Assembly: GCF_004010195.1 (NCBI RefSeq)
Contig: NC_057734.1
Span: 25,236,382-25,300,381 of the forward strand
Length of the DNA: 64,000 nt
Origin: Chiloscyllium plagiosum
Lineage: Eukaryota
Direction: 5' to 3'
Shown: piece after piece, positions 277-53,610 of the stretch
Position numbering within the stretch: the first letter of the stretch is position 1
Layout: each line of letters starts with the position of its first letter
Notes under the pieces: model-generated
The model's input: only the letters and a program-made list of their open reading frames with translations
Databases searched by the model: none
What the model was told of the DNA's origin: nothing
Position numbers and translations under genes: made by a program

Positions 277-433
277 TAGGTAAAAACAATGACTGCAGAT
301 GCTGGAAACCAGATTCTGGATCAGTGGTGCTGGAAGAGCACAGCAGTTCAGGCAGCATCCAAGAAGCAGCAAGCTCTCTGCCTTTATTCCTGATGAAGGG
401 CTTTTGCCCGAAACGTCGATTTTGCTGCTTCTC
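277..433. mobile_element. Short Penelope-derived inverted-repeat element with hammerhead motif
   Basis: pLTR-type arm gactgcagatgctgga...ggcagcatcc plus an opposite arm with CTGATGAAGGGCTTTTGCCCGAAACGTC (390-417). Flanked by the 14-bp direct repeat ggatactcctaatg (263-276, 434-447). Confidence 0.75.
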
Positions 434-451
434 GGATACTCCTAATGGCCT

Positions 452-661
452 GAGTCAAAAAATGTGGCGCTTGAAAAGCACAGCAGGTCAGGCAGCAACA
501 AGCAAGGGAGTCGACCTTTTGGACATAAGCCCTTCACAAGGAAGGGCATATGTTCAAAACATCAACTCTCCTGCTCCTCGGATGTTGCCTGATCTGCTGT
601 GCCTTTCCAGCCCCACGCTTTCCGACTCACTTTCCAGCATCTGCAGACCTCACTTTCTCTC
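452..661. mobile_element. Palindromic Penelope-derived element (two inverted pLTR arms, degenerate hammerhead motifs)
   Basis: Left arm ...gaaaagcacagcaggtcaggcagc...cataagcccttc is the reverse complement of the right arm gaagggcatatg...gcctgatctgctgtgcctttcc. TSD actcctaatggcct at 438-451 and 662-675. Confidence 0.8.
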
Positions 662-2510: not shown

Positions 2511-2694
2511 TTTCAAAAATATTCTGTTACATTGCCAGAACAGACCCACTAAAGATGATGTTATGGTGGCATACAATCAGTAGGAGTGAGCCGCATAAAT
2601 CTCAAAGCAAGGAAACATGGAAAATAAGCCAATTACTGCCTCCCTCTGCTGATCAATTAGCATTCCTTCACGCTGAACATCACTTTCAAATGTA

Positions 2695-3013: not shown

Positions 3014-4345
3014 CATGGACACTGAAGTATCCACACCGAGTACTTCAATGTCCATCACGTGAAACATTGGGGCTGCAGCAGCTGGTAAGAGAACTAATTC
3101 AGGGGAAAGCCTAATTAACTTTGTCCTCTCCAATCTGTCACATATGCATCCATCAATGGAAGGATTAATAATGAAGACTAGCCCACAGTCCTAGTGGAAA
3201 CAAAATCCTTTACTTATGCTGACAATATCCTCCATCATGTTCTGTAGCACTACCACTACCACTGTGCTAAGTAGCAGAGATTCACAACAGATTAGCCAGC
3301 TCAAAACTGGGCATCCATTAGGCACTTTGGAACCATCAACGTCATTACTTTATTCAATCACAATCTCAAATCTTCTGACCTGGTATATCCCTTATTCTAC
3401 CATTACCAATCTGGGTACCAATGCTGGTTCAATCAGAAGTGCAGAACAGCATGCCAACAGCCACACCACGGGTATGTAAAATAAGGTGTCAAAATGGTGA
3501 GACTACAACACAGGACAGCAAAGCATGCTAAGCACTGAAATAGCGTGCAATAGGTAGAACAAAGGAATTCCACAACAAATTAACCAGATCTGCAGTTCTG
3601 CCACATTCAGTTACGAATGAAAGTTGAAGTAAACAACTAACAAGAGGAGGGTCCACAAACATCCCATTCACAATGATGGGACATCTCAGCACATTAGTGC
3701 AAAAGACAAAGCATTGAAATCCTCTTCAAAAGGAGCAGGATGAACCATCCACTTGGTACTTCTCACTGAAGCCCTCAGGATTCTCACAGAATCCAATTCC
3801 ACATTTAACATGATTTTTATGAAAATTCATGCTGAAAACATCTATTTTCAGGAATGCAACTCCAGTTTTAAGTGGAAAGATCCTGTATATCACCATTCTT
3901 TCAGAGTGCCCAGATAAAACGCTGAAACACCCTCCATAATAAGACTGTACTTAGATTTCAGTCTTCAACCAACTCAATTCAATTCAATTCTCATGATAGC
4001 ATGAAACAACTAAAGTACTGGATACAAAGTTATGAGGCTCTACTATCTTCAGTATTACAGCCAGGATACAGTATTGTGTTCCAGAACTAGCTGTGTATCT
4101 AGTTAAACTTTTACACAAATCCTCTAACATCAACATCCACAGGACAATGTGCAAAATTGCCCAGGTATACCTTGATGACATATCTAACCCAGCTAAATGT
4201 CACCCCACTAGCCTGCTGTCAATCATCATCAAGATGGTGGAAGGTGTTATTAACACGCTATCAAGCAGTACTTCCTCCCCAATGCTCAATTTTACTTTCA
4301 AACCCCGTTGCAGCACTGGCCCAGGCATGGGATGGACAAAAGAGA

Positions 4346-5368
4346 GCTGAAAATGTGTTGCTGGAACAGCGCAGCAGGTCAGGCAGCATTCAGGGAACAG
4401 GAGAATCGACGTTTCGGGCATAAGCCCTTCTTCAGGAATGAGGAAAGTGAGTCCAGCAGGCTAAGATAAAAGGTAGGGAGGAGGGACTTGGGGGAGGGGT
4501 GTTGGAAANNNNNNNNNNNNNNNNNNNNNNNNNNNNNNNNNNNNNNNNNNNNNNNNNNNNNNNNNNNNNNNNNNNNNNNNNNNNNNNNNNNNNNNNNNNN
4601 NNNNNNNNNNNNNNNNNNNNNNNNNNNNNNNNNNNNNNNNNNNNNNNNNNNNNNNNNNNNNNNNNNNNNNNNNNNNNNNNNNNNNNNNNNNNNNNNNNNN
4701 NNNNNNNNNNNNNNNNNNNNNNNNNNNNNNNNNNNNNNNNNNNNNNNNNNNNNNNNNNNNNNNNNNNNNNNNNNNNNNNNNNNNNNNNNNNNNNNNNNNN
4801 NNNNNNNNNNNNNNNNNNNNNNNNNNNNNNNNNNNNNNNNNNNNNNNNNNNNNNNNNNNNNNNNNNNNNNNNNNNNNNNNNNNNNNNNNNNNNNNNNNNN
4901 NNNNNNNNNNNNNNNNNNNNNNNNNNNNNNNNNNNNNNNNNNNNNNNNNNNNNNNNNNNNNNNNNNNNNNNNNNNNNNNNNNNNNNNNNNNNNNNNNNNN
5001 NNNNNNNNNNNNNNNNNNNNNNNNNNNNNNNNNNNNNNNNNNNNNNNNNNNNNNNNNNNNNNNNNNNNNNNNNNNNNNNNNNNNNNNNNNNNNNNNNNNN
5101 NNNNNNNNNNNNNNNNNNNNNNNNNNNNNNNNNNNNNNNNNNNNNNNNNNNNNNNNNNNNNNNNNNNNNNNNNNNNNNNNNNNNNNNNNNNNNNNNNNNN
5201 NNNNNNNNNNNNNNNNNNNNNNNNNNNNNNNNNNNNNNNNNNNNNNNNNNNNNTTATGCCCGAAACGTCGATTCTCCTGTTCCCTGGATGCTGCCTGACC
5301 TGCTGCGCTGTTCCAGCAACACATTTTCAGCTCTGATCTCCAGCATCTGCAGACCTCACTTTCTCCTC
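4346..5368. mobile_element. Young Penelope-like insertion with inverted termini (interior is an assembly gap)
   Basis: Near-perfect inverted pLTR arms on both sides of the gap. Intact hammerhead motif on the minus strand at 4405-4438. 14-bp TSD atggacaaaagaga at 4332-4345 and 5369-5382. Confidence 0.85.
4509..5253. other. Assembly gap (N run)
   Basis: Run of N. Confidence 1.
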
Positions 5369-7631
5369 ATGGACAAAAGAGACCAGATCCAGCAGTGATG
5401 TGAGGTTGTCTAGCCTGCGGTATTCAAAACAGTATTCAAACATGTGAAGCAACAAATTCAGCAAAATTTAGGCTGGTGGGAATCAAAATTCTCACTCTTT
5501 GGGAATTGTACCATGCACAAGGGCAGATGGTTGCAGTTGTTTGAAGTCAATCCTCTCAGCCAAGACATTAGTACAGAAGTTCCTCATGGAAGTATTTTAC
5601 GCCCAACCATTTTCAGCTATTTCATCAACAATCTTTCCCCCAGCACAAGGTGAGAAATAGAGACATTTGCTGATGATTGCACAGTACACAATACCATCCA
5701 CAATTCTTCAGATACTGAAACAGTTCATGCCTGCAAGACCTGGACAAGATTCAGCCTTTGACTGATAGGTGGCAGGTAACATTTGTGTCATCTCCAACAA
5801 AAAAGTAAACCATCTCCCCTTGATGTTCATTTGCACTGTCATTTCCTCAACCGTCAGAATGCTGAAGGTTCACTTTTGACCAGAAACTTAACTAGACTGG
5901 CCATATAAACATTATGACTGCAAGAGATGGTCAGAGCTACAAATTCTGTGGCAACTATCTCATCTCCTAACTCCCCAAAGACTGCCTGCCATCTGTACAG
6001 CAGACATCAGGAGTGTGTTTACACACTTTCAATTTACCTGGACGAGTGCAGTTGCAACAATACTTATGGTCAACATTATCCAGGATCATGCAGCCCCCTT
6101 GATTTGCACACCATCCACCACCTTAAAATAACACCACCTCCACTACGACCACACAAAGGCAGAAGTGTGTACCATCTAAAACGTGCATTCAACAACATGT
6201 CAACCTTTCTTTCACAGCACCCCCTAACCTATGAATGATTCCTCCTGGGAGGTAAAAAGGATTACCACCGCCTTCAAGTTCCCCTCCCACTGTCTGATGT
6301 CGAACTAGACATGGGGTTCACATTAGGGGTTATTCCACTTTAACACTGATAAGTTATTTGGACTAGAAAGCTCACTGGGCATGAGATTTGTTTTAATGTT
6401 ATTAACTGCAATGTATTGGCTGACACAACTGTCACCATTTTGGAATCGCTTCTCCCTCAAGCAGTTCTTGAGGCCACCTCCCAACATTCAATACAGTGCT
6501 GCTGGAGTTCTGCAGCAGGGATCCACCAGGCCCCAGACAATCAGAGCCAAATAATATGCGTTCCTTGCCAGCTGAGAGGCCAACACCAGTCCACACATAG
6601 GCAGCATGTCAGAGCCACTGCTCTAGTCTGGCAGGGCGTTGTCTCCCTCCACAAGCCGGCAGCAGAACAGCAGACTGGAGCCACAGCTGGCAAAATAACA
6701 CAGCAGAGTCACCAAACTCCATCCAGAGCAGCTATCACTATCCACATCCAGCCTGTGCAAAACCCAGAGGCTCCCCCATACTGCTCTATCAGTTCTGCTG
6801 CAGGAACCATGTAGCCTGACCACCAGGGGAGGAAGTGCCAGTGAACCCAGCCACAATTGACACTCCGCTGATCAGGAAGACAGAAAGAAAGAAAGAAAGA
6901 CCAAGGACACTATGTCCAGGAGAAGGTGTCCTGGTGAGCAATGGCCCGAAAGGACTCTGGAGGCAGTGATTCCAATTTAGCAAGGAAACAACAGCCTCAG
7001 CACATGGGAACTTCAGGTCACCCAAGATTCTACTGTAATGCCATGTCCTAACTTACACCAAATTACATTTGATTGCGCCTATACTGGCAGACCCACACTG
7101 GCTCACAGTTAAGGAATATGGTAATTTTAAAATTCTAAATCTTGCTTTTATCCATGGCTTCGGCCCCTCAAATCTCTAACCTCTTGCATACCTGCAACAT
7201 CCCAAGCTAACTGCACTTCTCCAAACTCTGCCCATTCTAAATCCTCTATTTTCTTTGCTTCACCCATGACTGCCAAGTTTTTGACAGTCTTGACTCTTAG
7301 CTCATGACTTCGCCTTCCTTAAAACCCATTTGATTAATCTTTTCATCGACTGCCCAAACATCAAGTTTCAAATTTTGCTCTGTAACAATCCTATGAAGCT
7401 CTTTATGACTTTCACTACATAAAAGGTGCTTTATAAACTACAGTTGTTGCCAGCCATTGCACAACGTTAGTGTAAGCTGCTGTTGGCTGTGAACGACTAC
7501 CAAAATCGAGAATTTTCAGTTGGAAGATGGAAAAGTGTGTTGAGAAATATTTTTATAAATGTACACAAACTGTATGTAAGATGGAATGTAAAAGTGCAAT
7601 TCTTCCCCTTGTTTGCAAAAGAACCAAATAC

Positions 7632-8500
7632 AGAGTTAAAAAGTGTGGCGCTGGAAAAGCACAGCCAGTCAGGCAGCATCTGAGGAGCAGGAGAGTCAAC
7701 ATTTTGAGCATAAGGAATTTTGTGTGTGTGCGCGTGAGAGTGAGTGAATGAGATAAATGGAGGGGGTGGGGTTGGGGGGGGGGGAGATAAATAGCTAGGA
7801 ATGCAGTGGGTGGATGAAGATGGGGTGATGGTGATAGGTCAGTTGAAGATGGAGTGGACAGATGGGAAGTAAGATGGACAGATAAGGCACTTCAAGAGGG
7901 CTGTGCCGAGTTGGAGGGTTGGATCTGGGATAAGGTGGGGGAGGGGAGATGAGGAACCTGGTCAAATCAACATTGATACCGTGTGGTTGAATGGTCCAAA
8001 GGCAGAAGATGAGGTGTTCTTCCTCCAGTCATCGGATGGCTAGGATTTGGTGGTGGAGGCAGCCCAGGACTTGCATGTCCTTGGCAGAATGGGAGGGGGA
8101 TTGAAGTATTCAGCCACAGGACAGTGGGATTGTTTGGTTTGCGTGTCCCAGAGATGTTCCCTGAAACATTCCGCAAGTTGGCATCCTGTCTCCCCGATGT
8201 AGAGGAGACCACATAGAGAGCAATGGACACAAGTAGATGAGGTGTTTGGAGGTGCTGGAAAATCGCTGCCGGATGTGGAAGGATCCTCTGGGGCCTTGGA
8301 TGGAGGTGAGGAGGTAGGTGTGGGTGCAGGTTATACACCTCTCGCAGTGGCAAGGAAAGTGCCAGGAATGGAGGGTGAGTTGGTGAAGGGCGTGGACCTA
8401 ACGTGGGAGTCACAGAAGGAATGGTCTCTGTGGAATGCTGAAAGAGGTAGGGAGAGAAATACATCTCTGCTGGTGGGGTCTGATTGTCGATGGCAGAAAT
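7632..8500 (-). mobile_element. Penelope-like element 3' fragment (GIY-YIG endonuclease remnants plus pLTR)
   Basis: Reverse complement is homologous to 37130-38015 (the LYIGETG...FREHL and EEHLIF segments). Contains a pyrimidine-rich 3' region and a pLTR arm at 7632-7712. Confidence 0.85.
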
Positions 8501-10096: not shown

Positions 10097-10105
10097 GGCC
10101 AAATC

Positions 10106-11087: not shown

Positions 11088-11565
11088 CACTTACCTTCCC
11101 CTGCAACCGCAAGATATGCAAAACTTGCACCAACACCTCCCCCCTTATTTTCCTCCAAGGCCCCAAGGGATCCTTCCATATCCGCCACAAATTCACCTGC
11201 ACCTCCACACACATCATTCACTGCATCCGCTGCACCTGATGTAGCCTCCTCTATATTGGGGAGACAGGCCACCTACTTGCGGAACGTTTCCGAGAACACC
11301 TCTGGGACACCCGCACCAACCAATCCAACCACCCCATGGCGCAACACTTCAACTCCCCCTCCCACTCCACCAAGGACATGCAGGTCCTTGGACCCCTCCA
11401 TCGCCAGACCATAGCAATACGACGGCTGGAGGAAGAGCACCTCATCTTCCGCCGAGGAATAACGTCGATTCTCCTGCTCCTTGGATGCTGCCTGACCTGC
11501 TGCGCTTTTCCAGCAACACATTTTCAGCTCTGATCTCCAGCATCTGCAGTTCTCACTTTCTCCAT
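11088..11565 (+). mobile_element. Penelope-like (probably Neptune-type) GIY-YIG endonuclease fragment
   Basis: Translates TFPCNRKICKTC...FTCTSTHIIHCIRCT*CSLLYIGETGHLLAERFREHL...AQHFNSPSH...RRLEEEHLIFR, followed by a pLTR tail. Confidence 0.88.
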
Positions 11566-11669
11566 TGAACACTCCAACCAAACATTATCACTGACATTAA
11601 ACACTGTTAATTAGGCGACAGGGGGAGAAGCATGACAGGGCGAATTAAGTTAAATATGGAAACCACAAG

Positions 11670-11902
11670 TTGAAAAGTGTGGCATTGGAAAAGCACAGCA
11701 GGTCAGGCAGCATTTGAGGAGCAGGAGAATCAAGTTTCGGGCATAAGCCCTTCTTAAGGGATGTATTCCTGATGAAGGACATATGCCTGAAACATCGATT
11801 CTCCTACTCCTCGGATGCTGCCTGACCTGCTGTGCTTTTCCAGTGCCAAACGTTTCAACTTTTATTTTCAGCACCTGTAGTCCTCACTTTCTCCGAGTTG
11901 AG
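11670..11902. mobile_element. Palindromic Penelope-derived element with two opposed hammerhead-like motifs
   Basis: Arms at about 11671-11760 and 11765-11860 are reverse complements. Near-TSD ggaaaccacaag (11658-11669) / ggaaatcacaag (11903-11914). Confidence 0.82.
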
Positions 11903-12386: not shown

Positions 12387-12410
12387 CTTGATCAATGATC
12401 TATGACTTGT

Positions 12411-13363: not shown

Positions 13364-13702
13364 AACAATCTGACTCCAAAGACCAACATATTTCCATGAG
13401 CTCTTTCAAATGCAAAGCCAATCCTTAGAAGAGTATAAAAGAAGTAGGAGTATACTTAAGAGGGAAATCAGGAGGGCAAAACGGGGATATGAGATAGCTT
13501 TGGCAAATAGAATTAAGGAGAATCCAAACGGAACAATCTGACTCCAAAGACCAACATATTTCCATGAGCTATTTCAAATGCAAAGCCAATCCTTAGAAGA
13601 GTATAAAAAAAGAAGTAGGAGTATACTTAAGAGGGAAATCAGGAGGGCAAAACGGGGACATGAGATAGCTTTGGCAAATAGAATTAAGGAGAATCCAAAT
13701 GG
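13364..13702 (+). repeat. Tandem duplication, period 168 bp, spanning the flank/LINE 5' junction
   Basis: aacaatctgactccaaagaccaac...gaatccaaa(c/t)gg occurs at 13364 and 13532, with a few substitutions and an A-run length difference. Confidence 0.92.
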
Positions 13703-15190
13703 TTTTTACAAATATATTAAGGACAAAAGGGTAACTAGGGAGAGAATAGGGCCCCTCAAAGACCAGCAAGGCGGCCTTTTGTTTAAGAAGGGTGGTAAAG
13801 ACAAGCCAGGGAACTACAGACCGGTGAGCCTGACCTCAGTGGTGGGCAAGTTGTTGGAGGGAATCCTGAGAAACAGGATGTACATGTATTTGGAAAGGCA
13901 AGGACTGATTTGGGATAGTCAACATGGCTTTGTGTGTGGGAAATCATGTCTCACAAACTTGATTGAGTTTTTTGAAGAAGTAACAAAGAAGATTGATGAG
14001 GGCAGAACAGTAGATGTGACCTATATGGACTTCAGTAATGCATTTCACAAGGTTCCCCGTGGGAGACTGATTAGCAAGGTTAAATCTCATGGAATACAGG
14101 GAGAACTAGCCATCTGGATACAGAACTGGCTCAAAGGTAGAAGACAGAGGGTGGTGGTGGAGGATTGTTTTTCAGACTGGAGGCCTGTGACCAGTGGAGT
14201 GCCACAAGGATTGGTGTCGGATCTTCTACTTTTTGACATTTACATAAATGATTTGGATGCGAGCATAAGGGGTACAGTGAGAAAGTTTGCAGAGGACACC
14301 AAAAGTATAGTGGACAGCGAAGAGGGTTACCTCAGATTACAACTGGATCTAGACCAGATGGGCCAATGGGCTGAGAAGTGGCAGATGGAGTTTAATTCAG
14401 ATAAATGCGAGGTGCTGCATTTTGGGAAAACAAATCTTAGCAGGACTTATACACTTAATGGTCCTAGAGAGTGTTGCTGAACAAAGAGACCTTGGAGTGC
14501 AGGTTCATAGCTCCTTGAAAGTGGAGTCACAGGTAGATAGGATAGTGAAGAAGGCGTTTGGTATGCTTTCCTTTATTGGACAGAGTATTGAGTACAGGAA
14601 TTGGGAGGTCATGCTGCGGCTGTACTGGACATTGGTTAAGCCACTGTTGGAATATTGCGTGCAATTCTGGTCTCCTTCTTATCGGAAAGATGTTATGAAA
14701 CTTGAAAGGGTTCAGAAAAGATTTATTAGGATGTTGCCAAGGTTGGAGGATTTGAGCTATAGGGAGAGGCTGAACAGGCTGGGGCTGTTTTCCCTGGAGC
14801 ATCGGAGGCTGAGGGGTCACCTTATAAAGGTTTACAAAATTATGAGGGGCATGGATAGGATAAATAGGGAAAGTCTTTTCCCTGGGGTCCGGGAGTCCAG
14901 AACTAGAGGGCATAGCTTTAGGGTGAGAGGGAAAATATATAAAAAAGACTTAAGGGGCAACTTTTTCACGCAGAGGGTGGCACGCGTATGGAATGAGCTG
15001 CCAAAGGAAGTGGTGGAGGCTGGTACAATTGCAACATTTAAGAGGCATTTGGATAGGTATACGAATAGGAAGGGTGTAGAGGGATATGGGCCGGGTGCTG
15101 GCAGGTGGGTTGGGATATCTGGTCGGCATGGACAGGTTGGACCGAAGGGTCTGTTTCCATGCCGTACATCCCTATGACTCTACGACTCTC
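13580..15190 (+). mobile_element. HER1/CR1-type LINE, 5'-truncated ORF2 (RT) with internal deletion and frameshift
   Basis: ORFs 13578..14480 and 14422..15177 give NYRPVSLTSVVGKLLE, QHGF...SCLTNLIEFFE, SGVPQG, KFAEDTK, WQMEFNSDKC and FFTQRV. The 3' tail is shared with the HE1 SINE. Confidence 0.95.
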
Positions 15191-27709: not shown

Positions 27710-28200
27710 AACAGATATCCTAACATGCTTTACAGTCACTGAAGTGCTTTTAGTAGTCACTGTTGTACTGTAGGAAACCCTGCAGCCAGTTTGATAAACT
27801 CAAACAAAAATCAACATGATAATGATCATATGATGCTGGAGGGATAAACATTGGCCAAGACCCCAGAGAGAACAGGGAGAAAGTGAGGACTGCAGATGTT
27901 GGAGATCAGAGTCAGGAGTGTGGTGCTGGAAAAGCACAGAAGGTCAGGCAGCATCTGAGGAGCAGGAGCCTTTCACTAGGAAATGGAGGATGATGATGAT
28001 GGGCACGTCCTGAAGAAGGACTCAAGCCCAAAACGTTGATTCGCCTGCTCCTCGGATGCTGCCTGACCTGCTGTGCTCCCTCAGGAAGAACACCACTGCT
28101 CTCTTCGAAATATGTTTTTTTTTGTAATGCTCATCTGAGAGGGGAAATTGGATTTCCAGCAGTAGCTTTACACTCTGCAATTTTCTCCATTAAGAATGCT
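27710..28200 (-). mobile_element. Old Deu-domain-like SINE remnant split by a Penelope hairpin
   Basis: gctttacagtcactgaagtgctttt...gtcactgttgtactgtaggaaa...gagggataaacattggccaagac resembles recalled AmnSINE1/SacSINE1 sequence. Related remnants at about 10860-11045 and 29590-29840. Confidence 0.5.
27877..28077. mobile_element. Palindromic Penelope-derived element
   Basis: The left arm 27877-27968 and right arm 28009-28077 are inverted. Degenerate hammerhead ctgaagaaggactcaagcccaaaacgtt. Confidence 0.8.
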
Positions 28201-31177: not shown

Positions 31178-31498
31178 GGTCAGCTCAGTGGCTCGGTGGT
31201 TAGCCCTGCTGACTCACAGTGCCAGGGCCAGAGTTCAATTCCAACCTTGGAAGACTGTGTGGAGTTTGCACATTCTCCCCCTGTGTGTGGGTTACCTCCA
31301 GGTGCTCCAGTTTCCTTCTGCAGGTTAGATGGATTGGCCATGCTAAGTTGCCCATTGTATCCTGGGATGTGTAACTTAGGTGGATTAGCCATGGGGAATT
31401 CACTGTAATGGGGTGAATCTGGGTTGGATGCTCTTCAGAGAGTCAATGTGTCTTGTTGGGCTGAATGTCCTGTTTTTACACTGCAGGGGATTCTATGA
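31178..31498 (+). mobile_element. HE1-type SINE (older)
   Basis: gtggctcggtggttagccctgctgactcacag head, HE1 core, ggattctatga tail. Confidence 0.85.
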
Positions 31499-31655
31499 GA
31501 ACAGGTCAGAGGAGCCCCATAGCAGTGCTGTTGAGGTAAGAAGCCATGTAAGGGTCTTGTTCATATTTTTGTTCTCTTGCAATACCAGATCAGTCAGTAA
31601 TATGCTGACTTAATAGCGTGCATGCTACTCCAAAACAACAAGCCAAGTTTATTTT

Positions 31656-31940
31656 TAGATTAGATTCTCTACAGTGTGGAAACAGGCCCTTCGGCCCAAC
31701 AAATCCACACCGCCCCGCCAAAGAAAAACCCACCCAAACCCATTCCCCTAGCCTATACTTACCCCTGACTAACGGGCCTAATTCACCTGACCTGCACATC
31801 TTTGGATTGTGGGAGGAAACCGGAGCACCCGGAGGACACGGGGACAATGTGCAAACTCCATACAGACAAGCGGGAATCGAACCCAGGTCCCTGGTGCTGT
31901 GAGGCAGCAGTGCTAACCACTTAATCACCGTGCCGCCACG
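31656..31940 (-). mobile_element. HE1-type SINE
   Basis: ttagattaga tail and caccgtgccgcc head as read on the + strand. Confidence 0.9.
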
Positions 31941-33374
31941 TTCTTTCTTTCAAGATTCTTTCTCAAGTAGTTATTGAATGCAACATACAATGGGTAGATT
32001 TACATTCTGTAGAATAAACTAAAAAACTGTTGTCACAGTAACAGGGAAGATACAGTTTCATTCATATTAGTCTCTGCATGAGGTTAAAAAATTCTGTCTT
32101 TTATCATCATTATAGTTTGCACTGATATTTTTCAACAAGACTTACCAAAGGCCCGTGAATTGCAATTTGAACTTCAATATAAAAAGCTCGTGTTCTACTA
32201 GTCAATGTTGAAGAATTTTAGAGTGGGGTCGGAGTTAACATGGCTTCTTATGCACATACAAAGAGCTAAGGATTAACATTGTTTTGCACTCACCATTGGC
32301 CTACCCTTATAAACCCTTTGCTATTTTTTGCAGCCTCACCAATATTTTTAATGAATTATTGACTATTCTTTCTCCCTTCCTCGGAGGACCCAGGAGGTCT
32401 GGCATCGTCTGTGGTGACAGAAACTGGGAAGTGATACATATACTCCCATCCATCAATGCATCAATCAATACCCTGCCAACTTTAAACTTGGCAGCTCTGC
32501 CAGTCAATCTGTTAAACCAGCAACTTCGTGACAACTGCTGGCACTACAAGGAGTCCAAAGGAGAACTGATCCAGTCTCCCGGAATCAGGGTGCTTCCATG
32601 CATTTTGGTCAGGTTAGGGTTGGAGATCCCAGATTCCGGGATGTCAGCAAGGCCACAATGAAGATAATCTTTCCCCACCTTCTCATCTGGGTTTAGCCCA
32701 CGCAGTGAAAGTTGACAGGTTTTCCTACCTCAGCCATTTGTACTACACTAGCAGAGGCGGAATATGGTCTTTAAACGGCCATTCATTAGTTAGTAAATAA
32801 AAAAGCCTCAATAGGCCTAAGGATAGCTGAGACATCTGAAGCTTTATTCATCATCTTTGTAAAACAGAGCACAGGGAAGGAGTCTTAGAGTAGGCCAGCA
32901 ACTCTATTTTTAAATATCCCTCCCACCCACCTGCCTTTCAAGTATAGGGGACTGGCATAAAGGGTCAATATTTTGAGTCAAATATGACTTCTCTCCAACA
33001 AAGACTCAAAAGGTTAACTTTGTTTTCTTGCCATAGATTGACAGGTTTACTAAATATTTCCAGCACATAACATTTTTATTTCAGATTTCCTATATCTAAG
33101 GAACTTGCATTATTCAAATTTGGCTATTAACTTTGGATTAATTCCACCAGGTCCCAGTTAGACCTTTAAATAGATCACTTTACAACAGTCTCAGGCTAAC
33201 AGTCAGTACCTACATGGATACTCTACATTCAGCATCACAACAGGCTTTGCATCACGCCCATTCTGTCAATTTTTGTCTGCCTCTCCTCAGTTAAAAGGAA
33301 GTTGCAACAGTGGTGGACTAAAGTCAAAGGAATAAAAGAGATCAAAAAGGAAACACCAGTAAAATGATGAAACA

Positions 33375-34710
33375 CAGAAAACAGGAGCAGGCGTAGAACG
33401 TTCAACCTTCCAAGCCTGCTCCACCACTCATTACAATCATGGCTGCTTTTTATTCCTGATGAAGGGCTTTTGCCCGAAACGTCGATTTTGCCTGTCCTCG
33501 GATGCTGCCTGAATTGCTGTGCTCTTCCAGCACCACTGATCCAGAATCCAATTCAACAGCCTGTTCCCACTTTTCCTCAATATCCTTTGATGTCATTAGC
33601 CCCAAAGCTAGATTCACCATCCCCTTGAATCATGTAGTGCTTGGATCTTGACTGCTTTATGTAGTAACAAACTCCATAGGGTCACTATTTATGGTGAAGA
33701 AATTTCTCCTCATCATAGTCCTAAATAGTTTACCCCTGGTTTTGGACTGCCCATCCTTCCTGCACCAACCTTGTCTAATCCTATTTGGAATTCCTTTCAG
33801 GAGTTAGAATCATTCAATGAATATAATCATAACCAATTCAACCTTTGCTCATACAGTAATCCTGCCAGCCCAAGGACCAGTCGGGTAAACCTTCACAGCA
33901 TTCCCTCAACAGCAAGAGCATTCTTACTCAGATAAGGAGACAAAAACTGCACACAACATTTCAGGTGGGGTCTCAGCAAGGTATTGTACAATTACAGAAG
34001 ACATCCCTGCTCCTGTACTCAAATCGTCTCGACGAAGGACAATACATCATTTGCCTTCTTGACCACCTGAATGCTTACCTTCAGTGACTGGTGCACAAGG
34101 AAATTCATGTCTCATTGCAATTCCACCCTCTCAATGTATAGCCAGTCAGATAATAATCAACCTTTCTTTTTCTGCTACCAAAGTGGATAACCTCACATTT
34201 ATCCACATTATACTGCATACGCTGTACAGAGGGGAGGTGCCAGCCTAATAGTATTGTCACAAGACTATTAATCCAGAGACCCAGGTAATGTTCTGAAGAT
34301 CTGGGTTCAAATTCCACCATGGCAGATGGTGACGCCTGCATTCAATAAAAAAAATTATGGAATTAATAGTCTAATGGTGACCATGAAATCATTGTCGACT
34401 GTCAGAAAAAAACCCATCTGGTTTAGGGAAGGAAACGGTCATCCTCATGTGGTCTGGCCTTTATGTGATTCCAGACCCATAGCAACATGGTTGACTCTTA
34501 ACTGTCCTCTGAGCAATTAGGGTTGGGCAATAAATGCCCACATCCTATGAACAAATAAAAAAAAGTAACTTGTCCAAATCACACTGAAGCATCTCCACAC
34601 ATTCTTCACAGCTCATCCTCCCATCCAGCTTTGTCTCATCTGCAAATCTGGAGAAGTTACATTTAGTTCCCTTATCTAAATCAGTCATTTATATTGTGAA
34701 TAGCTGGAGA
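33375..34710 (-). mobile_element. CR1 LINE 3' fragment with nested Penelope pLTR (33450-33550) and SINE (34229-34563)
   Basis: caggagcaggcgtag tail; ORF 34105..34341 gives QYNVDKCEVIHFG. Intact hammerhead motif CTGATGAAGGGCTTTTGCCCGAAACGTC at 33456-33483. Confidence 0.8.
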
Positions 34711-35499: not shown

Positions 35500-37095
35500 A
35501 CTCAGTTTGAGGGCAAAAAAGTAATAAAGAGAGAAAAGCAAACTAGCACAGAATATTAAAACAGATAGCAAAAATCTGTTATAAGCATACAAAAGGGAAG
35601 ACAGTAGCTAAAGTAACTGTTGGTCCACTGAAGGGCAAGATTGGGGAGCTAATAGTAGGGAAATTAGGGAGACACTAATCAATGTTTTGTATCAATTTTC
35701 ACAGTGGAGGATAAAATCTTAATAATGACAGGTAGTGCAGAAGGTGATAGAAAGAGAGGAGCCTACAATAAACATCATCAGTAGGAAAGAGGAACCTTTC
35801 CGACTGAAGGTAGACAAGCCCCAGGGCCTGATGATCCACGTCCTAGGGTCTTCAATAAAGTGATAGCAGAGAATGTGGATCTACTGGTATGTTCCAAAAT
35901 TCCCCTCAATGTGAGACAAGTTACAATGAATTGGACAATGTTCATACAATACCCTTATTCAAAAAGGGAAAAACACAGAAATAAGCCAGTTAGTTTCACA
36001 TCATCATTGGGACATATGAAGTATTAAATATTCATTATTAAGGAAGTAATTATAGTACATTTACACAGTTAGAATGAATCCATCAGAGTCAGCATGGTTT
36101 TATGAAAGGTAAATTATGTTTAACTAAGTTTCAAGAGTTCTTTGAAGATTTAACAAGCAAAGTGGATAACGGATATCCTGTAGATGTAGTAGATCAGGAC
36201 TTCCAGACAGAATTTGCAAATGTGCCATACAAAGATTAATACACAAGATAAGATCACATGGAGCTGGGGTCATTCTTTGGTTTGGTTAGAGGATTGGCTA
36301 ACAAACAGAAAGCAGAGGATCAGGATAAATGGATCTTTTTCTGGTTGGCAAGATGCAACCAGTGGGGTGCCACAGGGATTGATCCTTGGGCCCCAATTCT
36401 TTACAATCGAAGAGAAAAATGGACCAAATTGGGCAGATAGAGTTTTATGCGGATAAATGTGAGGTTATCCATTTTGGTCAGAAGAATAGAAAGGCAATTA
36501 GAAAGAAATGTCAGAATGCCAGTGCAGAGAGATCTGGGTGTCCCAGTATATGATTCTCAGAAAATTAGAGTGCAGGTATAGCAGATAATAAGGAAGAGTA
36601 ATCGAATTTTCACTTGTACCTCTTTCAATTTGGTCTATTGCATTCTTTGCTCCCAATGTGTTCTCCTCTATACTGGACAGACAAAACGATTGTCTCTCTT
36701 TCTCTCCCTCCCCACTCTCTCATCACCTTTTTCCTCTCCTCTTCCCCTTTGCTACCCTTTTCTCCTGTTTTCCATTTTGCCTCTGCTTCACCCATCCCCC
36801 ACATATTTTGTCACATAGCACAGTGTTCAGCCTTGGAGATTTCCACTTTTGGGGCAATTTAGAACAAGAGGTCACAAGTTTTAGACTAAGGGGTAGCAGA
36901 CTTAAAAGAGAGGAGGATAAATCACCTCTCTCAAACGGCAGTGAATCTTTGGAATTCACTTCCCTAATGTGGTGAACGGTTGGACATTGAGTGAATTTGA
37001 GGGGATAGACAGTTTTTTAATTAGTAACAGGTTAAAGGAGTTGAGACTAGCCATGATTGTGTTGAATGGGGAGCAGGGTTGAGAGCCTGAATTCG
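35500..37095 (+). mobile_element. Decayed CR1 LINE (with a small Penelope fragment at about 36615-36820)
   Basis: ORF 36214..36456 gives WLEDWLTNRKQRIRINGSFSGWQDATSGVPQGLILGP. cagcatggttttatgaaagg (QHGF); 3' tail gaatggggagcagg. Confidence 0.8.
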
Positions 37096-38013
37096 AAGAG
37101 TGTGCTGCTGGAAAAGCATAGCCAGTCAACCCCCCTGGTCTTCACCTTCCACCCCATGAAACTCCAGATACACCACATCATCCTCCACCATTTCCACCAC
37201 CTACAAACAAAGCCTACTAGCAAAGATATATTTCTCTCTCCACTCCTATCTGTGTTTCGGAGAGACCATTCCCCCCGCTATGCCCTTGTCAGGTCCATGC
37301 CCCCCACCAACCTACCTCCCCCTGCCATTGCAAGAAGAGCAAAACCTGTGCCCACACCTCCCCCTGACCTCCATACAAGGCCCAAAAGGATCCTTCCACA
37401 TCCAGCAGAAATTTACTTGCAGTTCCACACACGTCATCTACTGCATCCGTTGCACCCGATGTGGTCTCCTCTACGTTGGAGAGCCAGGACGCCAACTTGT
37501 AAGTCGTTTCAGAGAACATCTCTGGCACACCCACACTAACCAACCTCAGTGCCCTGTAGCTGCAAACTTTAACTCCCCCTCCTACTCTGCCAAGGACATG
37601 CAGGTCCTGGGTCTCTTGCATCGCCAAACCCTAACCACCCAAAGCCTGGAGGAAGAACATCTCATCTTCCATCTTGGGACTCTCCAACCACACAGGATCA
37701 ATGTAGATTTCACCAGGTTCCCCATTTCCCCTCTCCCCACCTTATCCCCGTCCCAACCTTCCAACTTGAACGGTCTTATCTGTCCATCTTCCTTCCTACC
37801 TATCTGCTCCACCCTCCTCTCTGACCTATCAATTTCACCCCCACCCTCATCTACCTACAGCTTTCCCAGCTACCTCCCCCCACCAAGCCCCATCCCCTTT
37901 GGCCACAAACCTCACTGATGATGGGCTTATGCCAGAAACGTCGACTGTCCTGTTCCTCAGATGCTGCCCGTCTTCGACTCTGATCTCCAACATCTGCAGT
38001 CCTCACTTTCTCC
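37096..38013 (+). mobile_element. Penelope-like element 3' part with GIY-YIG ORF remnant, pLTR and a short inverted 5' arm
   Basis: ORF 37280..37918 contains VIYCIRCTRCGLLYVGEPGRQLVSRFREH...EEEHLIFHLGTLQPHRINVDF. Hammerhead-like ctgatgatgggcttatgccagaaacgtc at 37915-37942. Inserted in the CR1 tail. Confidence 0.9.
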
Positions 38014-38059
38014 TAGTTGAGGGGCTGACTTGCCTACTCCTGCTTCTACATCTCATCCC

Positions 38060-44175: not shown

Positions 44176-44269
44176 GCTTCTGCTTGGACATTTGTGAACG
44201 CTTAGTGCCTGCCATTTGAAGTCATTGATGCCCATACAGCAAACAAAATGTTTTTAGGCTTGTATATTT

Positions 44270-46253: not shown

Positions 46254-46729
46254 CTTCATATCCTCTAGAAGGGCATAAGGATCTTCTATCCCTTCAGGGA
46301 CACATTTTTTATTCTCTGGCAAAGACTCCAGTTTTTCCACAAGTGCTTTTAATCCTTTCAACTCAAATTCTGTAAGGTGAATCCATTTATTAGATCCTTC
46401 AGATGCTGGCTGAGATGGGTCAGGAGACCCACTTGGTGTTTTTGGACAGTCTGTCAGCATTGGTGACTTAGTGCTGTCATCTGAATCATTGGACAAAGTC
46501 CGCTTTAAACGCTTTGTCATTTTCGGTGTCTTTCCAGAGCTTTCATTTCCTTCTGAATGTGCACTGTTAGGAGATGGCGAATCATCACCAAATGCTTTTG
46601 TGCTTTGAAGGCTCATTTTATCTCTCGACTCATCTTTCTCCTCCTTGATTCGTACATCAGAAGATTCTTCATCCATATCTAGACGGGAATCTGATGAAGG
46701 ACTCTCTGTATTTGGTTTCTTCTCTGTAT
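46254..46729 (-). CDS. KDM2B: KDM2B coding exon (acidic/Ser-rich linker plus conserved [34 protein letters not shown] segment), 476 nt
   Basis: ttttcag|AT ACA GAG AAG...ATG AAG|gttagt. Contains most of ORF 46221..46676. The motifs [14 protein letters not shown] and [19 protein letters not shown] match KDM2B rather than KDM2A. Phase 1 to 0. Confidence 0.96.
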
Positions 46730-48731
46730 CTGAAAATATTTAAACTTAAATGTAATATGTAAAACATTGATCAAGAAAAATGTTTTCTTATATAACGGAT
46801 AGTGTTAATAGGTGATTACATAGAAATCAGGAACAAGCCCAACACCATTGTAACAATATGTAAAAGGCAACCATCTCAGAACGCATAATTGGAATTCACT
46901 GGCAATTGGCCAGCAACAATGATCGTCTATTTTTTCTATATGCTAAGGAGGAGCATAGAGGCCCAATCATAGCGCGGCTAGGGTTATGCCTTGTTGAAGT
47001 ATGCAATGCCATTAGGACAAGCTGTCATGTTCATACTGGAAAAATCCATTGCAATTTAACAGCAAAAAAATCCTGTCACTATTACACACAGTTTAGACAC
47101 TATATATTAGCAAAACTGTACAGAACAGTTTCAAACCTATAATTCGCAAGATTAAAAGAGCCTCCTTGTAGGAGTGATTTTTTTGATACGTTATTAATAG
47201 AATTCCTCACATCAAAACACCCACTTGGCTACAGAGGGAATAATAACATCGGAATGTTTTCAAGGCAGCATTAGCACAAAACTCATCAATAACAAGAACC
47301 ATCTTCATCTCCAACAATATCTAAATGCTTAATATTTTTTCAAAGCACTTTTACACAAGAATGTGAAACGTTAATTGCACAATTGATTTAGCAAATTACT
47401 TATAAGCACCGAACATAGGCAAATTACTGTTTTAGAGGGTTTCACACAGAACCCAGTCTTGCATTTCTTAAATTGTGGTCATGAGACAAATCAAAAGCAG
47501 GGACCTGAACTGAATTTTGCCTTCCCCACCCAAGGATTGAAGTCTGCCTGAGCTTATCAGAGATTTAGTATTGGATGGCTAACCTTAACTTGCCTCCCTC
47601 AAAATCCTGTTACAAGCAAGTAAAGAAAACTTCATTCTTTAAAGCATTGCAATACATAGGTTGCTCTGAAAAAGGAGATTGTACTGCGAAAGAAGATTAA
47701 CTAATTTACTCTATAGTCCAAACATTGAGGTCCTCATTCCAGGAGTCAACTCAGTCAATCAAAATTTGGGGTGCAAACCTGTCACTCTGGATCTCGGCCT
47801 GTATTGTACCGTTGTTGGTATAAAGAGGTAGCACTTCAGCTGCTTGCAAACTCAGTCTAGGAAAGAGGTTTACAAAGATGGTCTTAGAAGGCCATCAGAG
47901 ACATCCAGGAGATCCCAAAGAGAAGGAAAACACCATAATGTAGAATGTGGTGCACTGTCACTGAAATTTGTAATGAAGGCACAGGGAATTGTTTTATGCT
48001 GTTTTTGAAAGTGAGAAAGAGAACTAGAAAGAATACAATAAGGAATAAAATGTAATATAACCTGCTCAGTCACACAAGTATAAACACATAATTGCAAATA
48101 CATTGCAAACTATTTTTGACCGTGATCAACAGGGGGAATTTACTTAGCCCACTCCTGCACACCCACGGCAGCGAGGCAAAATGTTCAACAATTGGGAAAA
48201 CTTTGTTCTTGCCCATCCCTCTTTAAAAACTGGGCAGCTTTAATAGCTGTGCAGGAAGAGGAAACAGCATTGAAAAATAAACCATCTTATCCTCAATGAA
48301 CAAAGAGCCATCATAAAATGGCAAGTGGTCTGATTAGTAATTGGAATAATGTTGCCCAAGTTCAGGTCGGGAGATAAAGAATTATTTTCTGCAAATTACT
48401 TTAATTCTAGTTCCTCTATTAATTTTAACTTTTTTCATCTAAAGCCGAACTCCATACTGAGATGTAATTCAGTGGTAACAGTCATGCTTATCCAGCTCAC
48501 CATGTTTAATGTGTGAGACTTAACAGTATATCAGGGAGGTTATTCAACTCCAAAGGCATCGCTGTCTCATCCAATTCTATCCACACTCACTTCAAAGAAA
48601 CAAATTACCAGTTGGAGTTACTGATGATCAAATGTGAGCATGAACCCTGGCTTGTATCCCCTTCCTTATTCATTTGTTACAGTGTCTCCACTGCTACCAC
48701 AGTTGAAAGCACTTAACTTGGTACTTACAAC

Positions 48732-48767
48732 TGATCTTGCCAGTTTAAGTGATCTTGCCAGTTTAAC
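48732..48767. repeat. 18-bp tandem duplication
   Basis: tgatcttgccagtttaa(g/c) occurs twice. Confidence 0.9.
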
Positions 48768-48959
48768 TACTACATGATAAGGTAGTTGGGTCGTTAGGGA
48801 GCCAGTTAATTACTTCCACACGATCAAGCTATTTTTAGTCTGCTGAAAGTGCATATTTTATGGAATTTGCTAATGGCCTTTTATGTGTTTGCAAATACTT
48901 ACAGAACAAATACCCTGAAACGCTTCATGTGAACAGATGAACTACTGCTGGTAACTTAC

Positions 48960-49086
48960 CAATTAACATTGATTCCCTCTGGTATTGTTTGGTGAGATAA
49001 GACCTTTTCGTCAAACAGAACACATATCTTTCCAGGACATACCAGCACATTTCATAGTAGAAAGGATAGCGGAACTTGGCATTAAC
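48960..49086 (-). CDS. KDM2B: KDM2B coding exon (post-JmjC helical region), 127 nt
   Basis: tttttcag|GTT AAT GCC AAG TTC CGC...TTA ATT G|gtaagt = [42 protein letters not shown](D). Phase 0 to 1. Confidence 0.97.
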
Positions 49087-49241
49087 CTGAAAAACAAGGA
49101 TTATTTATATACAGAATATAGCTGAGGAAATGGAGAATTGTCAAATAAATGTGTGGGCACAGCAGAAAGCCACACCAATGGCCATTGTGTAGGTTGGTCA
49201 TATACAAATGATAAAAGCAAACAAACAATCTAGAGTCATTG

Positions 49242-49332
49242 TCGAAAAGTGTGGCGTTGGAAAAGCACAGCAGGTCAGGCAGCATCCTAGGGACAGGAGA
49301 ATTGACATTTCGCACATAAGCCCTTCATCAGA
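49242..49332 (-). mobile_element. Solo Penelope pLTR arm ending at the hammerhead motif
   Basis: 91-bp arm flanked by the 15-bp TSD aatctagagtcattg (49227-49241, 49333-49347). Confidence 0.85.
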
Positions 49333-51384
49333 AATCTAGAGTCATTGCTCGAGTGCATGTTTATTTCAGAAAGTATTTACAGAAATCTTGCATAAAGTTC
49401 ATTTTGCTTAACAAGGATTTCATATCCATGATTTTCGTTAGGGTCAGGGAATCAATTCTGTGAAATACACTGCTTTACATCAGTCTACACTTCATATGAG
49501 GCAGCGTACATACTTTAGCATTTCATTTTGTACCTTTGCTTGAATTGCCTTAACAACACAAACATCAGTTTATAAAGATTGCAATCATTAGGTTTTTACT
49601 AAGTTTGTCATGAGGATTAATGGATAATAAATTCACAAAAATTCAAGAGACTATTAAGTCACATCGGGCTGCTAGTTAGCAAGGACATGCATCACTGACT
49701 GTAAACAGTCACATTTTTAAATGCAATTTCTTTAGCAGTGAACCCTAGCTCACCCTTTCTATACCAAAATGACATTGTTTCAGGTCAAGCGACATTAAAG
49801 ACAACCGCACCTATTAGTACCTGCATGAGCCTGGACCAGTTTAAGTTCTTAAAATGCAATACCCAAAATACAAACATTCTAAGTTTTATGAAGAAAATGG
49901 GTTTGATGATGTTTGCCCACTTATGCAAATTCCTTTAAAAAGATTTTCCCTTTGCTGAATACATTTCAGTGTGCATCTTGGATCCTAAAGCCCGTAAGAT
50001 TGCACCTTCTTTAACTCAGATAAGTGAGGGTGAAAAGGCAATGCGTAGGAAATTTAAAATGAAAAATAATAGTGCAAAATTTATGAATGAATAATGATCT
50101 ATGACCAAAGTGTCACATTCTGGTCCACTTGAATGCTATTTTGATCCCACTGATGATAACACGAGACACGGTAGATCACAGAGTGAAAACTGGTTTGAAA
50201 AGAACATTAGCCTAATTTCTTTCACCACAAGTCTGTTGAACAAAAAAAAAACAAAGCTCTAAAATGTTGTTTAGGGCATGCTCAATTGATAAAATCATGC
50301 ATAGCTCCAAACTAAGTTTTGAAAATAACAAAATATGATATTACAATAAACAAAATTTTCTCTTTTTATCCCAGCAAAAACCTTTACAGATACTTAGTCC
50401 CACTGCAGTGACCTTCTGATGTTAACTTGTTAGTTTCTGACTAAACTGATTGTTTTCAGTTTTAGTGACCAAGAAACTGCTTTCCAGTTCTGATGACCTG
50501 GATTCCTATCCCAATATGTTGGCATAGAAGCTTCCTTTCTGCATGGAAATCTTTACACAACCTATCTTCACTTCTGATAGGAATTCTTCTACACTAAAAA
50601 CCTGAACAGAAACCTGATTCTTCTGAACTAAAAACCAGTAATAGCCGCTGGCCCACTTTCTCTGTCATAAAAGTTCAACTTTGTAAATATTTCATCAATT
50701 AACTTCATAGACATCTTACTAGGTACTTCACTTGCTTCCATGGAAATGATGTCTTTAGTTAATTGTTCCAAGAGACTTTGACCTCATAATAAAAATTACC
50801 CTCATAGAACTGGAACCACATATCTACTTTGACTATATTTCAAAATGAAAACTGCCAAATAATAACTGTATATACTTTATCAAAACATCCACTGAAATGG
50901 TTTAATTGGCTGAAAGCAAATGTTTACAGTTCCTCTGAAGATATTCACCAAAATTAACGGGAGAGATTGAGGGAACGTAATGTAAATTCTTCCCAACATA
51001 CTTTTGAACAAAATGTTGTTTCGTAGGTGCCTAATTTATAAAGTCTTGTACATTTCTGACATTGTATCTTGTGCATAAGGCAGGGCAAGTTTTAAAATCT
51101 GGATTGATGTCATAACCTGGAATCAAAAGAAGCCCATTGCCATTGGTAGCGTTTGCAAAGACCTCCATTATGAATATTTAATTGATTGTAGTAGCCAGAA
51201 CAAGTCTTTCATTGCCCCAAGCTAGTAAGAAACTCAACTTTTTTTGAACTACAAATAAGTAGTATCTCAATAGAAAAGGCAAATTAAAAGATCCATTATA
51301 AATGGGACTATGACTCAAACTGAAGAATTTTCAAAACATTACAAAACATAATAGTGCAGTTTAGCTGTTCAAGCTCCTGTTTGA

Positions 51385-53610
51385 TACAGTCATAAATGGT
51401 GGTGGACAAATAAAAAACTCATTGGAGGAGGCAGCTCCCACAAATATCTCCATCCTCAATGATGGGGAAGTACATCACATCAATGCCAAAGGTAAGGGTA
51501 AAGCATTTGCAACAATCTTTAGTCAGTAGTTCTTTGTGGAAGACCTATCTCAGCTTACTCCAAAAGGTCATAAGCATTGCAGATCCCAATCTTAAGCTAA
51601 CTCAATGCATTCCATGTGAGAACTAGAAATGGTTGATGGCATTGAATGCTAAAAAGGATATGGACCCTGACAACATTTTGACTCTATACTGAGAATCTGT
51701 CTTCCAGACGTTGCCTGCCCTTGGTGACAAGAGTTCCACTACTGATTCTGGTATCTACCCACCAATGTGGAAAACTGCCAGATATGCCCCATACACAAAA
51801 AACTGGGAAATCTAAACTGGTGAATTTCTGCCTCATCTGCTTATTCAAAATCATAAATAAAATTGGGAAAAGGGTGATCAACAGCACTAATAAGCAGCAC
51901 TTGCTCAGTTGGCCTAGTTATATTATCGACTAGGAAAAAGTGAGGACAGCAGATGCTGGAGATCAGAGTCAAAAAGCCTGGCACTGGAAAAGCACAGCCG
52001 ATCAGGCAGCTTCTGAAGAGTGGAAGAGTTGACGTTTAGGAAACATTCCTTATGCCTGAAACATCAACTCTCCTGCTCCGCGGATGCTGCCTGACCTGCT
52101 ATGCTTTTCCAGCACTACATTTTTTGACTGGTTGTATTATTGCTAGACTATTACTTCCAAACCCTCAGTAATGTTCTGGGGACCCGGGTTCAAAACCCAC
52201 CATGGCAGATGGTGAATTTGAAATCAAAACAAAAAAAAAACCTGGATTAAAGAGTCTAGTGATGACTATGAAACTATTGTCCATAGTCAAGAAAAAAAAT
52301 CATCTGGTTCACTAATGCCCTTTAAGGAAAGAAACTGCCATGTGGTTGACTCTTAAGTGCCCTCTGGGCGATTAGGATGGGCAATGAATGCTGGCTTAGC
52401 CAATGATGCCCACATTCCATGAATTAAAAAAAAACCTGTTGTTCATTGCTGTTCAATTTGGATTCTGCCAATTTGGATTCACTTGGCTTCTGACATCATT
52501 ACAGCCTTGATTCAAACGTAGACAAAAAAGCTGAACTCCAGAGGGAGAGTGACTGCGCATTTGACCAAGTGTGGCATCATTGAGCCCTAGTACATATCGA
52601 ATCAATGGAAATCAGGAGAAAATTCTCAGTTGGTTGGAGTCACACCTAACAAAAACAAAGATGATTGTGGTTGCTGTACAACAGTCATCTCGTTTTTTGG
52701 ACAGCTCTGCAGGACGTCCTCCAAGTAGTCTCCTTTGCCAAAAACATCTTCGTCTGCTCCATCGTTAGTGGGAATATTCACTGATAGTCACGCATTGTTC
52801 AGCACTGTTCACAACTCCTCAGATACCAAAGCTGTCAATGCCTAAATGCAGCAAGACCTGATCAATACCCATGCTTCAGGTGACAAATGGAAAGCAACAT
52901 TTGCATTTCACGTACCAGGCAATGACCATCTCGAAGGAAGGGGAAACTAACTATCATCCCTTGACATTCAATGGCATTACCAGCACTGAATTCTCCTACT
53001 TTCAAAATCCTGAGGGTTATCATTGACCACAAACAGAACTGGACTAGCTGCATGAATACTATGACTACAAAAGCAGGGTTATAGGCTCGACATCCTGTGA
53101 TGAGTAGTTCACCACGTGACTGCCCAAAGCTTGTCCACCAACTATAAGATATGTGTGTGATGGAATTCTCCCCCAATCGTCTTGGCTGGTGCACTTTCAA
53201 CAACACTTGATATCATCGAAGAAGAAGCACTGTGCTCGATTGTCAACACTACTCCAAACATTCAGTCCCTCCACCACAGGAGTTCATAATAGTAGTGTGT
53301 ACCATTGACAAGATGTACCCCAGAAAGGCTACAATGTCAGACCTTCTAAACCCATGATCATTATCATCTTGAAGGACAATAGCAAGTATCGATTCCTGCA
53401 TACTTCTCTCCAATCGACTCACCAACCTGACTTGGAAATACATCGCAGTTCGATCATCGTCACTGGGTCAAAATCCCGGAATGGCTTCCCTAAAGAGATC
53501 GTAGAAGTTCAAGAAGGCAACTAACTACCAACTTTTCCATGACAACCAGGGATGGGAAATGATTGCTGGCCCAAACAGTGAAACCCACAGATTCTGAAAG
53601 AAATTTTGAT
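51385..53610 (+). mobile_element. Old LINE with nested SINE and nested Penelope hairpin
   Basis: RT remnants (WLESHLTKTKMIVV in ORF 52571..52768; ttcactgatagt). Homologous to 3190-6290. Tail caaccagggatgggaaatgattgctggccc. Confidence 0.7.
51933..52129. mobile_element. Palindromic Penelope-derived element inserted in the head of a SINE
   Basis: Inverted arms at 51933-52040 and 52049-52129. The SINE head ggcctagttatattatcgactag resumes as gttgtattattgctagactatta. Confidence 0.8.

Follow-up and report, generated by a model that had tools for sequence, protein, structure and literature searches.

The 64,000-nucleotide stretch of the Chiloscyllium plagiosum genome analysed here (assembly GCF_004010195.1, contig NC_057734.1, positions 25,236,382 to 25,300,381, forward strand; hereafter the window) contains short palindromic insertions in which two inverted arms, both derived from the pseudo-long terminal repeat (pLTR) of an endonuclease-bearing Penelope-like element (EN+ PLE), meet head to head. 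These palindromic stubs are real, abundant and independently formed leftovers of a known class of elements and not a new ribozyme family; the claim of a new ribozyme-bearing mobile family, raised as one of two possibilities by an initial annotation of this DNA, does not hold. Each palindrome is probably a separate minimal EN+ PLE insertion, produced by two reverse transcription events primed from both ends of a staggered target cut. We also lean slightly towards the more specific proposal that the roughly 10^5 stubs are a fossil record of a single RNA, capped and uncut, being primed twice, by one target strand at +62 and by the opposite one at +97, with the hammerhead lying in the first 31 nt of that RNA.

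Layout, abundance and origin of the stubs

Positions on the arms are given on the sense strand of the element, with 0 at the hammerhead cut site (after GUC). An inverted-repeat search of the window and mapping of the arms confirmed inverted pairs at all six sites where palindromic inserts had been annotated. The arms are 34-81 nt long and 76-99% complementary at five of the six sites, and every arm maps to one 130-nt end sequence, the pLTR. A tail of about 35 nt is present on one arm of each pair, which bears out the earlier remark that one arm carries a distinct end. The target site duplications (TSDs) previously described are clear at 277-433, 452-661, 4346-5368 and 11670-11902, and doubtful at 27877-28077 and 51933-52129 (27876..28077 and 51932..52129 in our mapping), where the candidates are weak, 9-10 bp long with one mismatch. 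The insertion at 4346-5368 had been described as two arms only; its interior is a 745-base N gap (4509-5253) and its left, short arm extends to at least -100, so this description is not upheld.

The layout was then quantified in a genome sample of 160 stretches of 10 kb, taken at arbitrary positions on 27 contigs, which together with the window amounts to 1,602,917 non-N bases. A profile built from ten natural copies gave 348 matches, of which 244 passed a score filter and were mapped to 22 natural reference copies; a second filter kept 233 arms, 219 of them not beside an N. This filter misses arms starting beyond about +35 as well as a more distant second family, and 277-433 and 4346-5368 were not recovered as pairs. 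The sample contains 44 head-to-head pairs, 40 of them outside the window (26 per Mb), which corresponds to roughly 90,000 pairs in the 3.56 Gb genome, provided that the sample is typical. One pair with an N at its junction was dropped, and the remaining 43 were analysed. All but one (42/43) are 141-231 bp long, and TSDs of at least 9 bp (lengths about 9-17 bp, mostly 10-17 bp) surround the unit in 32 of the 43.

In the window, the stubs are connected to an element encoding a reverse transcriptase (RT) and a GIY-YIG endonuclease by the copy at 37075..38014. Positions 37160-37918 encode a GIY-YIG-like stretch followed by the same hammerhead-bearing end, and this piece of open reading frame (ORF) matches one longer protein (P0001, source label Chiloscyllium punctatum) with 71% identity. 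The ORF piece of a natural long copy from the sample (stretch L193) matches RVT_1 (E 1.2e-8) and, weakly, GIY-YIG (E 2.9e-4, just under the curated cut-off). The end sequence is found at the 3' end and a second time ahead of the ORF start, where it continues into the ORF; this identifies it as the pLTR of an EN+ PLE. The alignment distinguished at least five pLTR subfamilies, and palindromes were made by at least five.

The features of an EN+ PLE were thus found: an RT followed by a C-terminal GIY-YIG, a pLTR on both sides, a minimal hammerhead and an inverted copy with a one-sided tail. Three other classes are contradicted by the layout. Non-LTR retrozymes are head-to-tail tandems with a complete hammerhead in each unit, whereas the units here are head to head. 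Miniature inverted-repeat transposable elements (MITEs) derived from DNA transposons have symmetric terminal inverted repeats and a fixed TSD, whereas these ends are asymmetric (+62/+97) and the TSD varies between about 9 and 17 bp. A non-autonomous family copied as a unit would have a shared junction and whole-unit descent, whereas the junctions are heterogeneous and the arms interleaved.

A second, more distant family of hammerhead-bearing Penelope-like elements also forms head-to-head pairs (L091, block 6381-6596; L036, block 48400-49400). About 12 of 30 long copies (L124-L150) jump from about -430..-265 to -180..+18, losing part of the 3' untranslated region (UTR); these jumps may be template jumps or assembly artefacts.

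The pLTR reference copies contain a minimal hammerhead motif in which helix II folds, and the putative ribozyme was assigned from this motif and the published description of minimal hammerheads. The fold of the monomer is weak (z 0.5 to -2.1), and an Rfam search matched no hammerhead model, returning weak microRNA-type matches only. Publications are cited here for those parts of their text that were available. The hammerheads of metazoan PLEs are minimal type I motifs (CUGAnGA, a 4-bp helix II, GAAAC-GUC, no helix III loop) that occur as thousands of dispersed single copies, and in Schistosoma mansoni dual hammerheads lie on opposite strands, 100-700 bp apart (PMC4209133). The shark pLTRs have the same motif layout but, unlike the metazoan set, most of the copies are decayed or cut through the core (PMC4209133). 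Among the five short elements of the window, the sole exact CTGAnGA...GAAACGTC core lies in 277-433, on one strand only, and 11670-11902 has one core carrying a mismatch. Two intact cores were found in none of these five, and the core is intact on both strands in 3, on one strand in 16 and on neither strand in 24 of the 43 sampled palindromes; the back-to-back hammerheads of the initial annotation are therefore not confirmed. Motifs on opposite strands would also be unable to form a dimeric active fold within one transcript. The stubs may be mis-annotated as microRNA hairpins (see the weak Rfam matches) or as MITEs.

Breakpoints and the putative transcript start

The breakpoints are not randomly distributed along the element. 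When tabulated relative to the GUC site, 65 of the 219 arm 5' ends lie at -32..-29 (17 at -32, 19 at -31, 17 at -30 and 12 at -29), with a binomial p of about 1e-39 against a uniform distribution over -60..+20 (172 arms). The peak persists among the 79 best-matched arms and is accompanied by a tail of shorter arms. The arms had been said to meet at or near the ribozyme motif; they do so at its 5' edge or inside it, but not at the GUC site. The related suggestion of independent inversion products with focused breakpoints is likewise supported, with the focus at the 5' edge of the hammerhead instead of its cleavage site. If hammerhead self-cleavage set the breakpoints, a peak would be predicted at +1. 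A few arms do begin at -5..+5 (e.g. 277-433 and 27876-28077), but this peak is absent: only 6 of the 219 arms have their breakpoint at -2..+2, a frequency not above that of neighbouring positions. Moreover, the PAc protein (Poseidon, Anolis) uses uncut RNA in vitro (PMC11167929), and we give self-cleavage almost no credence as the source of the breakpoints.

Judging from the genomic copies, the wall at -31 is likely the start of the transcript, bearing the mark of a cap. The A at -31, as the +1 base, lies within the initiator-like motif TCATTCC or TTATTCC, which fits what we take to be the initiator consensus, YYANWYY. An internal, TATA-less promoter has been described for Penelope of Drosophila virilis (PMC2377424), and capped RNA copied to its end leaves an extra G in full-length LINE-1 (L1) insertions (PMC11702581). 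For subfamily A, exact matches counted across the whole genome have G before -31 in 3230 cases, A in 1524 and T in 605, against a templated C in 14275, so that 27% of such copies break at -31. Among the first 100 matches of each listing, cases explained by the other arm, by a duplication or by mutation within a read-through copy were then removed by hand. For subfamily A this took out about 50 of 100 G cases and 45 of 100 A/T cases, leaving approximately 58% G. For subfamily B, 47 of 100 were removed and the remainder comprised G 30, A 13 and T 10 (30/53 G vs 25.5% expected, p 1.6e-6). No G excess is seen at -32 (G 8, A 16, C 20), where the G:A ratio differs from that at -31 (Fisher p 0.005), nor at -15, a weak control consisting mostly of point mutants of read-through copies with about 12 informative breaks. 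The match patterns omit matches with a G in first place. Some palindromes carry the extra G on both arms (e.g. C1:108917180/108917196).

Several observations weigh against a single capped start. The initiator match is short and weak on its own. The corrected G counts come from hand classification of the first 100 matches listed, which lie on contigs C1 and C2; in subfamily A the neighbouring arm accounts for roughly half of the uncorrected G cases. Longer templates also exist, since 41 of the 219 arms extend past -100. Among 30 ORF-start copies, the five non-tandem ones with a whole hammerhead begin at about -31, -42, -44, -48 and -60 (by eye), and one tandem copy at -301; the starts are not unique, because only one of the five begins at -31 and the rest 11-29 nt upstream. 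Finally, the evidence comes from genomic copies and not from RNA 5' ends. In the poly(A) single-cell library X20, two natural copies showed reads on both strands without a pile-up of molecule starts or ends; capped 5' ends cannot be mapped with such a library, whose reads stem from many dispersed copies, and this result therefore counts neither for nor against a start at -31.

The wall could instead be a site at which RT stalls, or the RNA is processed, at the hammerhead fold. It does coincide with the 5' strand of hammerhead helix I, and the four non-tandem ORF-start copies that begin further upstream are in keeping with a stall. However, RT approaches the fold from its 3' side, so a stall would be expected close to +5 and not once the fold has been passed; the monomer fold is weak, and the confinement of the G excess to -31 is left unexplained. 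As for processing, no AG acceptor precedes -31 in the aligned subfamilies, and a splice acceptor at the wall was rejected on this ground. A stall or processing site is thus improbable, and we retain the transcript start as the likely cause of the wall. A downstream promoter element of the D. virilis type (RGACGTGY) is not claimed, as only its ACGT core was found, shifted out of register by about 2 nt as judged by eye.

At the other end of the arms, a copy of subfamily B (L072:6047-6060) has an AATAAA just ahead of the +62 end, and 55 X20 RNA reads have A-rich loose ends at L072 position 6055 (agreement 0.57). This is weak evidence for possible polyadenylation close to the first priming site.

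Independent insertions and a probable mechanism of two primings

All 43 pairs consist of exactly one tail arm (+95 to +101) and one short arm (mostly ending near +62), and solo arms occur both with the tail (68) and without it (65). The two kinds of arm also differ at their 5' ends: these lie within -40..-25 for the short arm in 31 of 43 pairs and for the tail arm in 17, and it is the short arm that extends further 5' in 33 pairs, the tail arm in 7 and neither in 3. Junctions mostly differ from one pair to another, with overlaps of 1-17 nt or short inserts.

We propose the following course of events for the separate insertions. The transcript of the element would start at the A at -31 from an internal promoter. 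On this RNA, capped and uncut, RT would initiate at two internal sites, the mode of initiation that anole PAc displays in vitro. One target end would prime at +62 and the other at +97, and both cDNAs would run towards the cap; the +62-primed one would be ahead and usually arrive there, while the +97-primed one would lag and more often end up shorter or be trimmed. The cDNA ends would be trimmed and then joined via 1-11 nt of microhomology or short inserts. The hammerhead would be a passenger at the front end of the RNA, its cutting not setting the breakpoint. Twin priming from +62 and +97 would thus yield one tail per unit, intact TSDs and the wall at -31, although priming on one RNA cannot be told apart from priming on two sister RNAs.

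A single cDNA could also suffice, if a strand primed at +97 reached the RNA end, primed itself by folding back, copied to +62 and was resolved by the endonuclease. Self-priming was proposed by Arkhipova et al. for junction palindromes (PMC3846280), which counts against two separate primings, and it would fit both the rare variants common to the two arms and the hairpin-like junction at the TTCC..GGAA quasi-palindrome seen in 4 of 43 pairs. Yet it predicts that the short arm never extends further 5' than the tail arm, and in 33 of the 43 pairs it does. The extra G on both arms requires two copies from RNA, and among solo arms, ends at +62 and at +97 are equally common. We therefore consider fold-back rather unlikely and prefer two primings.

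The other possibility, put forward in the initial annotation, is that the palindrome is a non-autonomous retro-MITE or retrozyme-like family, transcribed and inserted as a unit and presenting a ribozyme on both strands. The narrow size range, the TSDs round the unit and a recurrent junction would agree with this. The junction CAGGA/ATTCC (the slash marking the joint), a perfect palindrome at AATT, occurs in 24 of the first 100 matches listed for subfamily B and in 28 of the first 100 for subfamily A. However, this commonest junction carries in each subfamily that subfamily's own diagnostic bases on both arms, for which convergence at the AATT microhomology is the simpler explanation. Checking for shared junctions thus revealed mostly heterogeneous ones, in support of independent events, together with one that recurs in two subfamilies.

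Neither do the arms form separate lineages. A tree of the arms was built from 129 columns for 42 pairs, one long-armed pair being left out. The two kinds of arm intermingle on it, with 37 label changes compared to 28.2 in shuffles, but the columns are few and good support is confined to 9 of the 81 branches. No alignment column separates short from tail arms at p<0.01. Rare variants are shared by the two arms of one element 16 times vs 1.6 in shuffles (maximum 10), and the own partner is the nearest tail arm in just 9 of 42 copies, as expected because arms decay separately inside large subfamilies. The +62 end is moreover the same as in solo and long copies, and palindromes with two intact cores are as rare as described above. 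The unit-family reading is already largely refuted and in our judgement highly improbable, the 1.6 Mb sample leaving room for a minor subset of palindromes that propagated as a unit.

The layout of an inverted pLTR plus a tail is already published. EN+ PLE insertions have an inverted 5' pLTR, a one-sided tail of 30-40 bp and a TSD (Adineta vaga Pen2a, PMC3846280; scheme in PMC8557442). The stubs resemble Pen2a and other EN+ PLEs in their head-to-head pLTRs, single-end tail, TSD round the unit and junction palindromes, and differ from Pen2a in being mostly devoid of an ORF, in having arms of about 60-130 nt and in the piling up of breakpoints at one base (PMC3846280). PAc cuts and extends both target strands in vitro, starting RT on uncut RNA at two internal sites whose spacing equals the tail (PMC11167929). 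In the stubs, too, two RT start sites downstream of the hammerhead would define the tail, both target strands would be extended and cleavage would not be needed; the shark ORF, however, likely starts at about +135, past the tail and not in stem II, which differs from PAc, and neither inverted stubs nor the 5' end of the RNA are discussed in the available text of that in vitro study (PMC11167929).

The 5' inversion, intact TSD, junction microhomology and extra G on reaching the cap are shared with L1 twin priming. In L1 the second primer adjoins the first cDNA end and the pieces are almost non-overlapping, whereas in the stubs the same stretch is copied twice from fixed starts (PMC11702581). 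The stubs are also similar to non-LTR retrozymes, which derive from PLE pLTRs and carry type I hammerheads without an ORF, but retrozymes are head-to-tail tandems with intact ribozymes and the stubs head-to-head singletons with mostly broken cores (bioRxiv 10.64898/2026.07.22.740005). A literature search, outside which most subscription papers and supplements lay, found no publication on cap-G ends or twin priming in Penelope stubs or in these shark elements.

Window features and meaning for Penelope-like elements

The copies in the window are listed in Table 1. Stubs 1 and 2 (263-675) belong to different subfamilies and lie at the same target site, with TSDs overlapping at a 4 bp offset, which is possibly a target hot spot. 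An exon of a KDM2A-like histone demethylase is found on the minus strand at 46281-46640 (PDB match 7uv9_K, E 1.2e-11), and the later stubs of the window are likely within or close to this gene. Decayed RT-bearing LINE copies, which we take from their motifs to be CR1-like, lie at 13542-15189 and 25442-27215 (RVT_1 E 7e-27). The inverted pair at 31174-31942 is not a Penelope stub and consists of two opposed copies of another repeat, presumably similar to a shark tRNA-derived short interspersed element (SINE).

Table 1 Copies of the Penelope-like element in the window (arm positions relative to the hammerhead cut site)
Feature	Position	Strand	Arms or content	TSD
Palindromic stub 1	277..433		tail arm 277-372 on - (+100 to +5); second arm ~373-433 on + (~-44 to +22)	263-276/434-447, 14 bp
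Palindromic stub 2	452..661		short arm on - (-30 to +59); tail arm on + (-22 to +98)	438-451/662-675, 14 bp
Young insertion with inverted ends	4346..5368		short arm 4343-4508 on -; tail arm 5254-5368 on +	starting at 4332 and 5369, 13-14 bp
Older longer copy	7630..8500	-	-805 to ~+60	
Copy with internal jump	11093..11563	+	jump from -299 to -5; tail at end	
Palindromic stub	11668..11902		short arm 11668-11763 on - (-32 to +63); tail arm 11765-11894 on + (-31 to +97); ~8 bp extra past tail	11658-11669/11903-11914, 11/12 match
Palindromic stub	27876..28077		tail arm 27876-27968 on - (+5 to +97); short arm 28008-28077 on + (-29 to +40); arms separated by 39-bp insert with (GAT)n run	doubtful
Solo stub	33452..33548	+	-31 to +65; 97 nt identical to natural reference copy	
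Longer copy, same element	37075..38014	+	short inverted piece, 3' part of ORF with GIY-YIG-like stretch, 3' UTR, hammerhead, tail	
Solo stub	49244..49335	-	-31 to +58	
Old palindromic stub	51932..52129		tail arm on - (-9 to +100); short arm on + (-16 to +58)	doubtful
Young longer 5'-truncated copy with tail	55799..56568	-	broken by N gap 56075-56378	

The origin of the inverted pLTR with its one-sided tail has been called undefined (PMC8557442). If two primings on a capped, uncut RNA are indeed what the stubs record, the inverted pLTR, the one-sided tail and the TSD would be explained at once, and cutting by the hammerhead would strip the cap from the transcript. The stubs offer countable constraints on this process, namely the strict pairing of a short and a tail arm, the single-base 5' wall with its cap-like G, and an asymmetry of the arms that speaks against simple fold-back, and the statistics of their breakpoints are thus a usable clue to an open mechanism.

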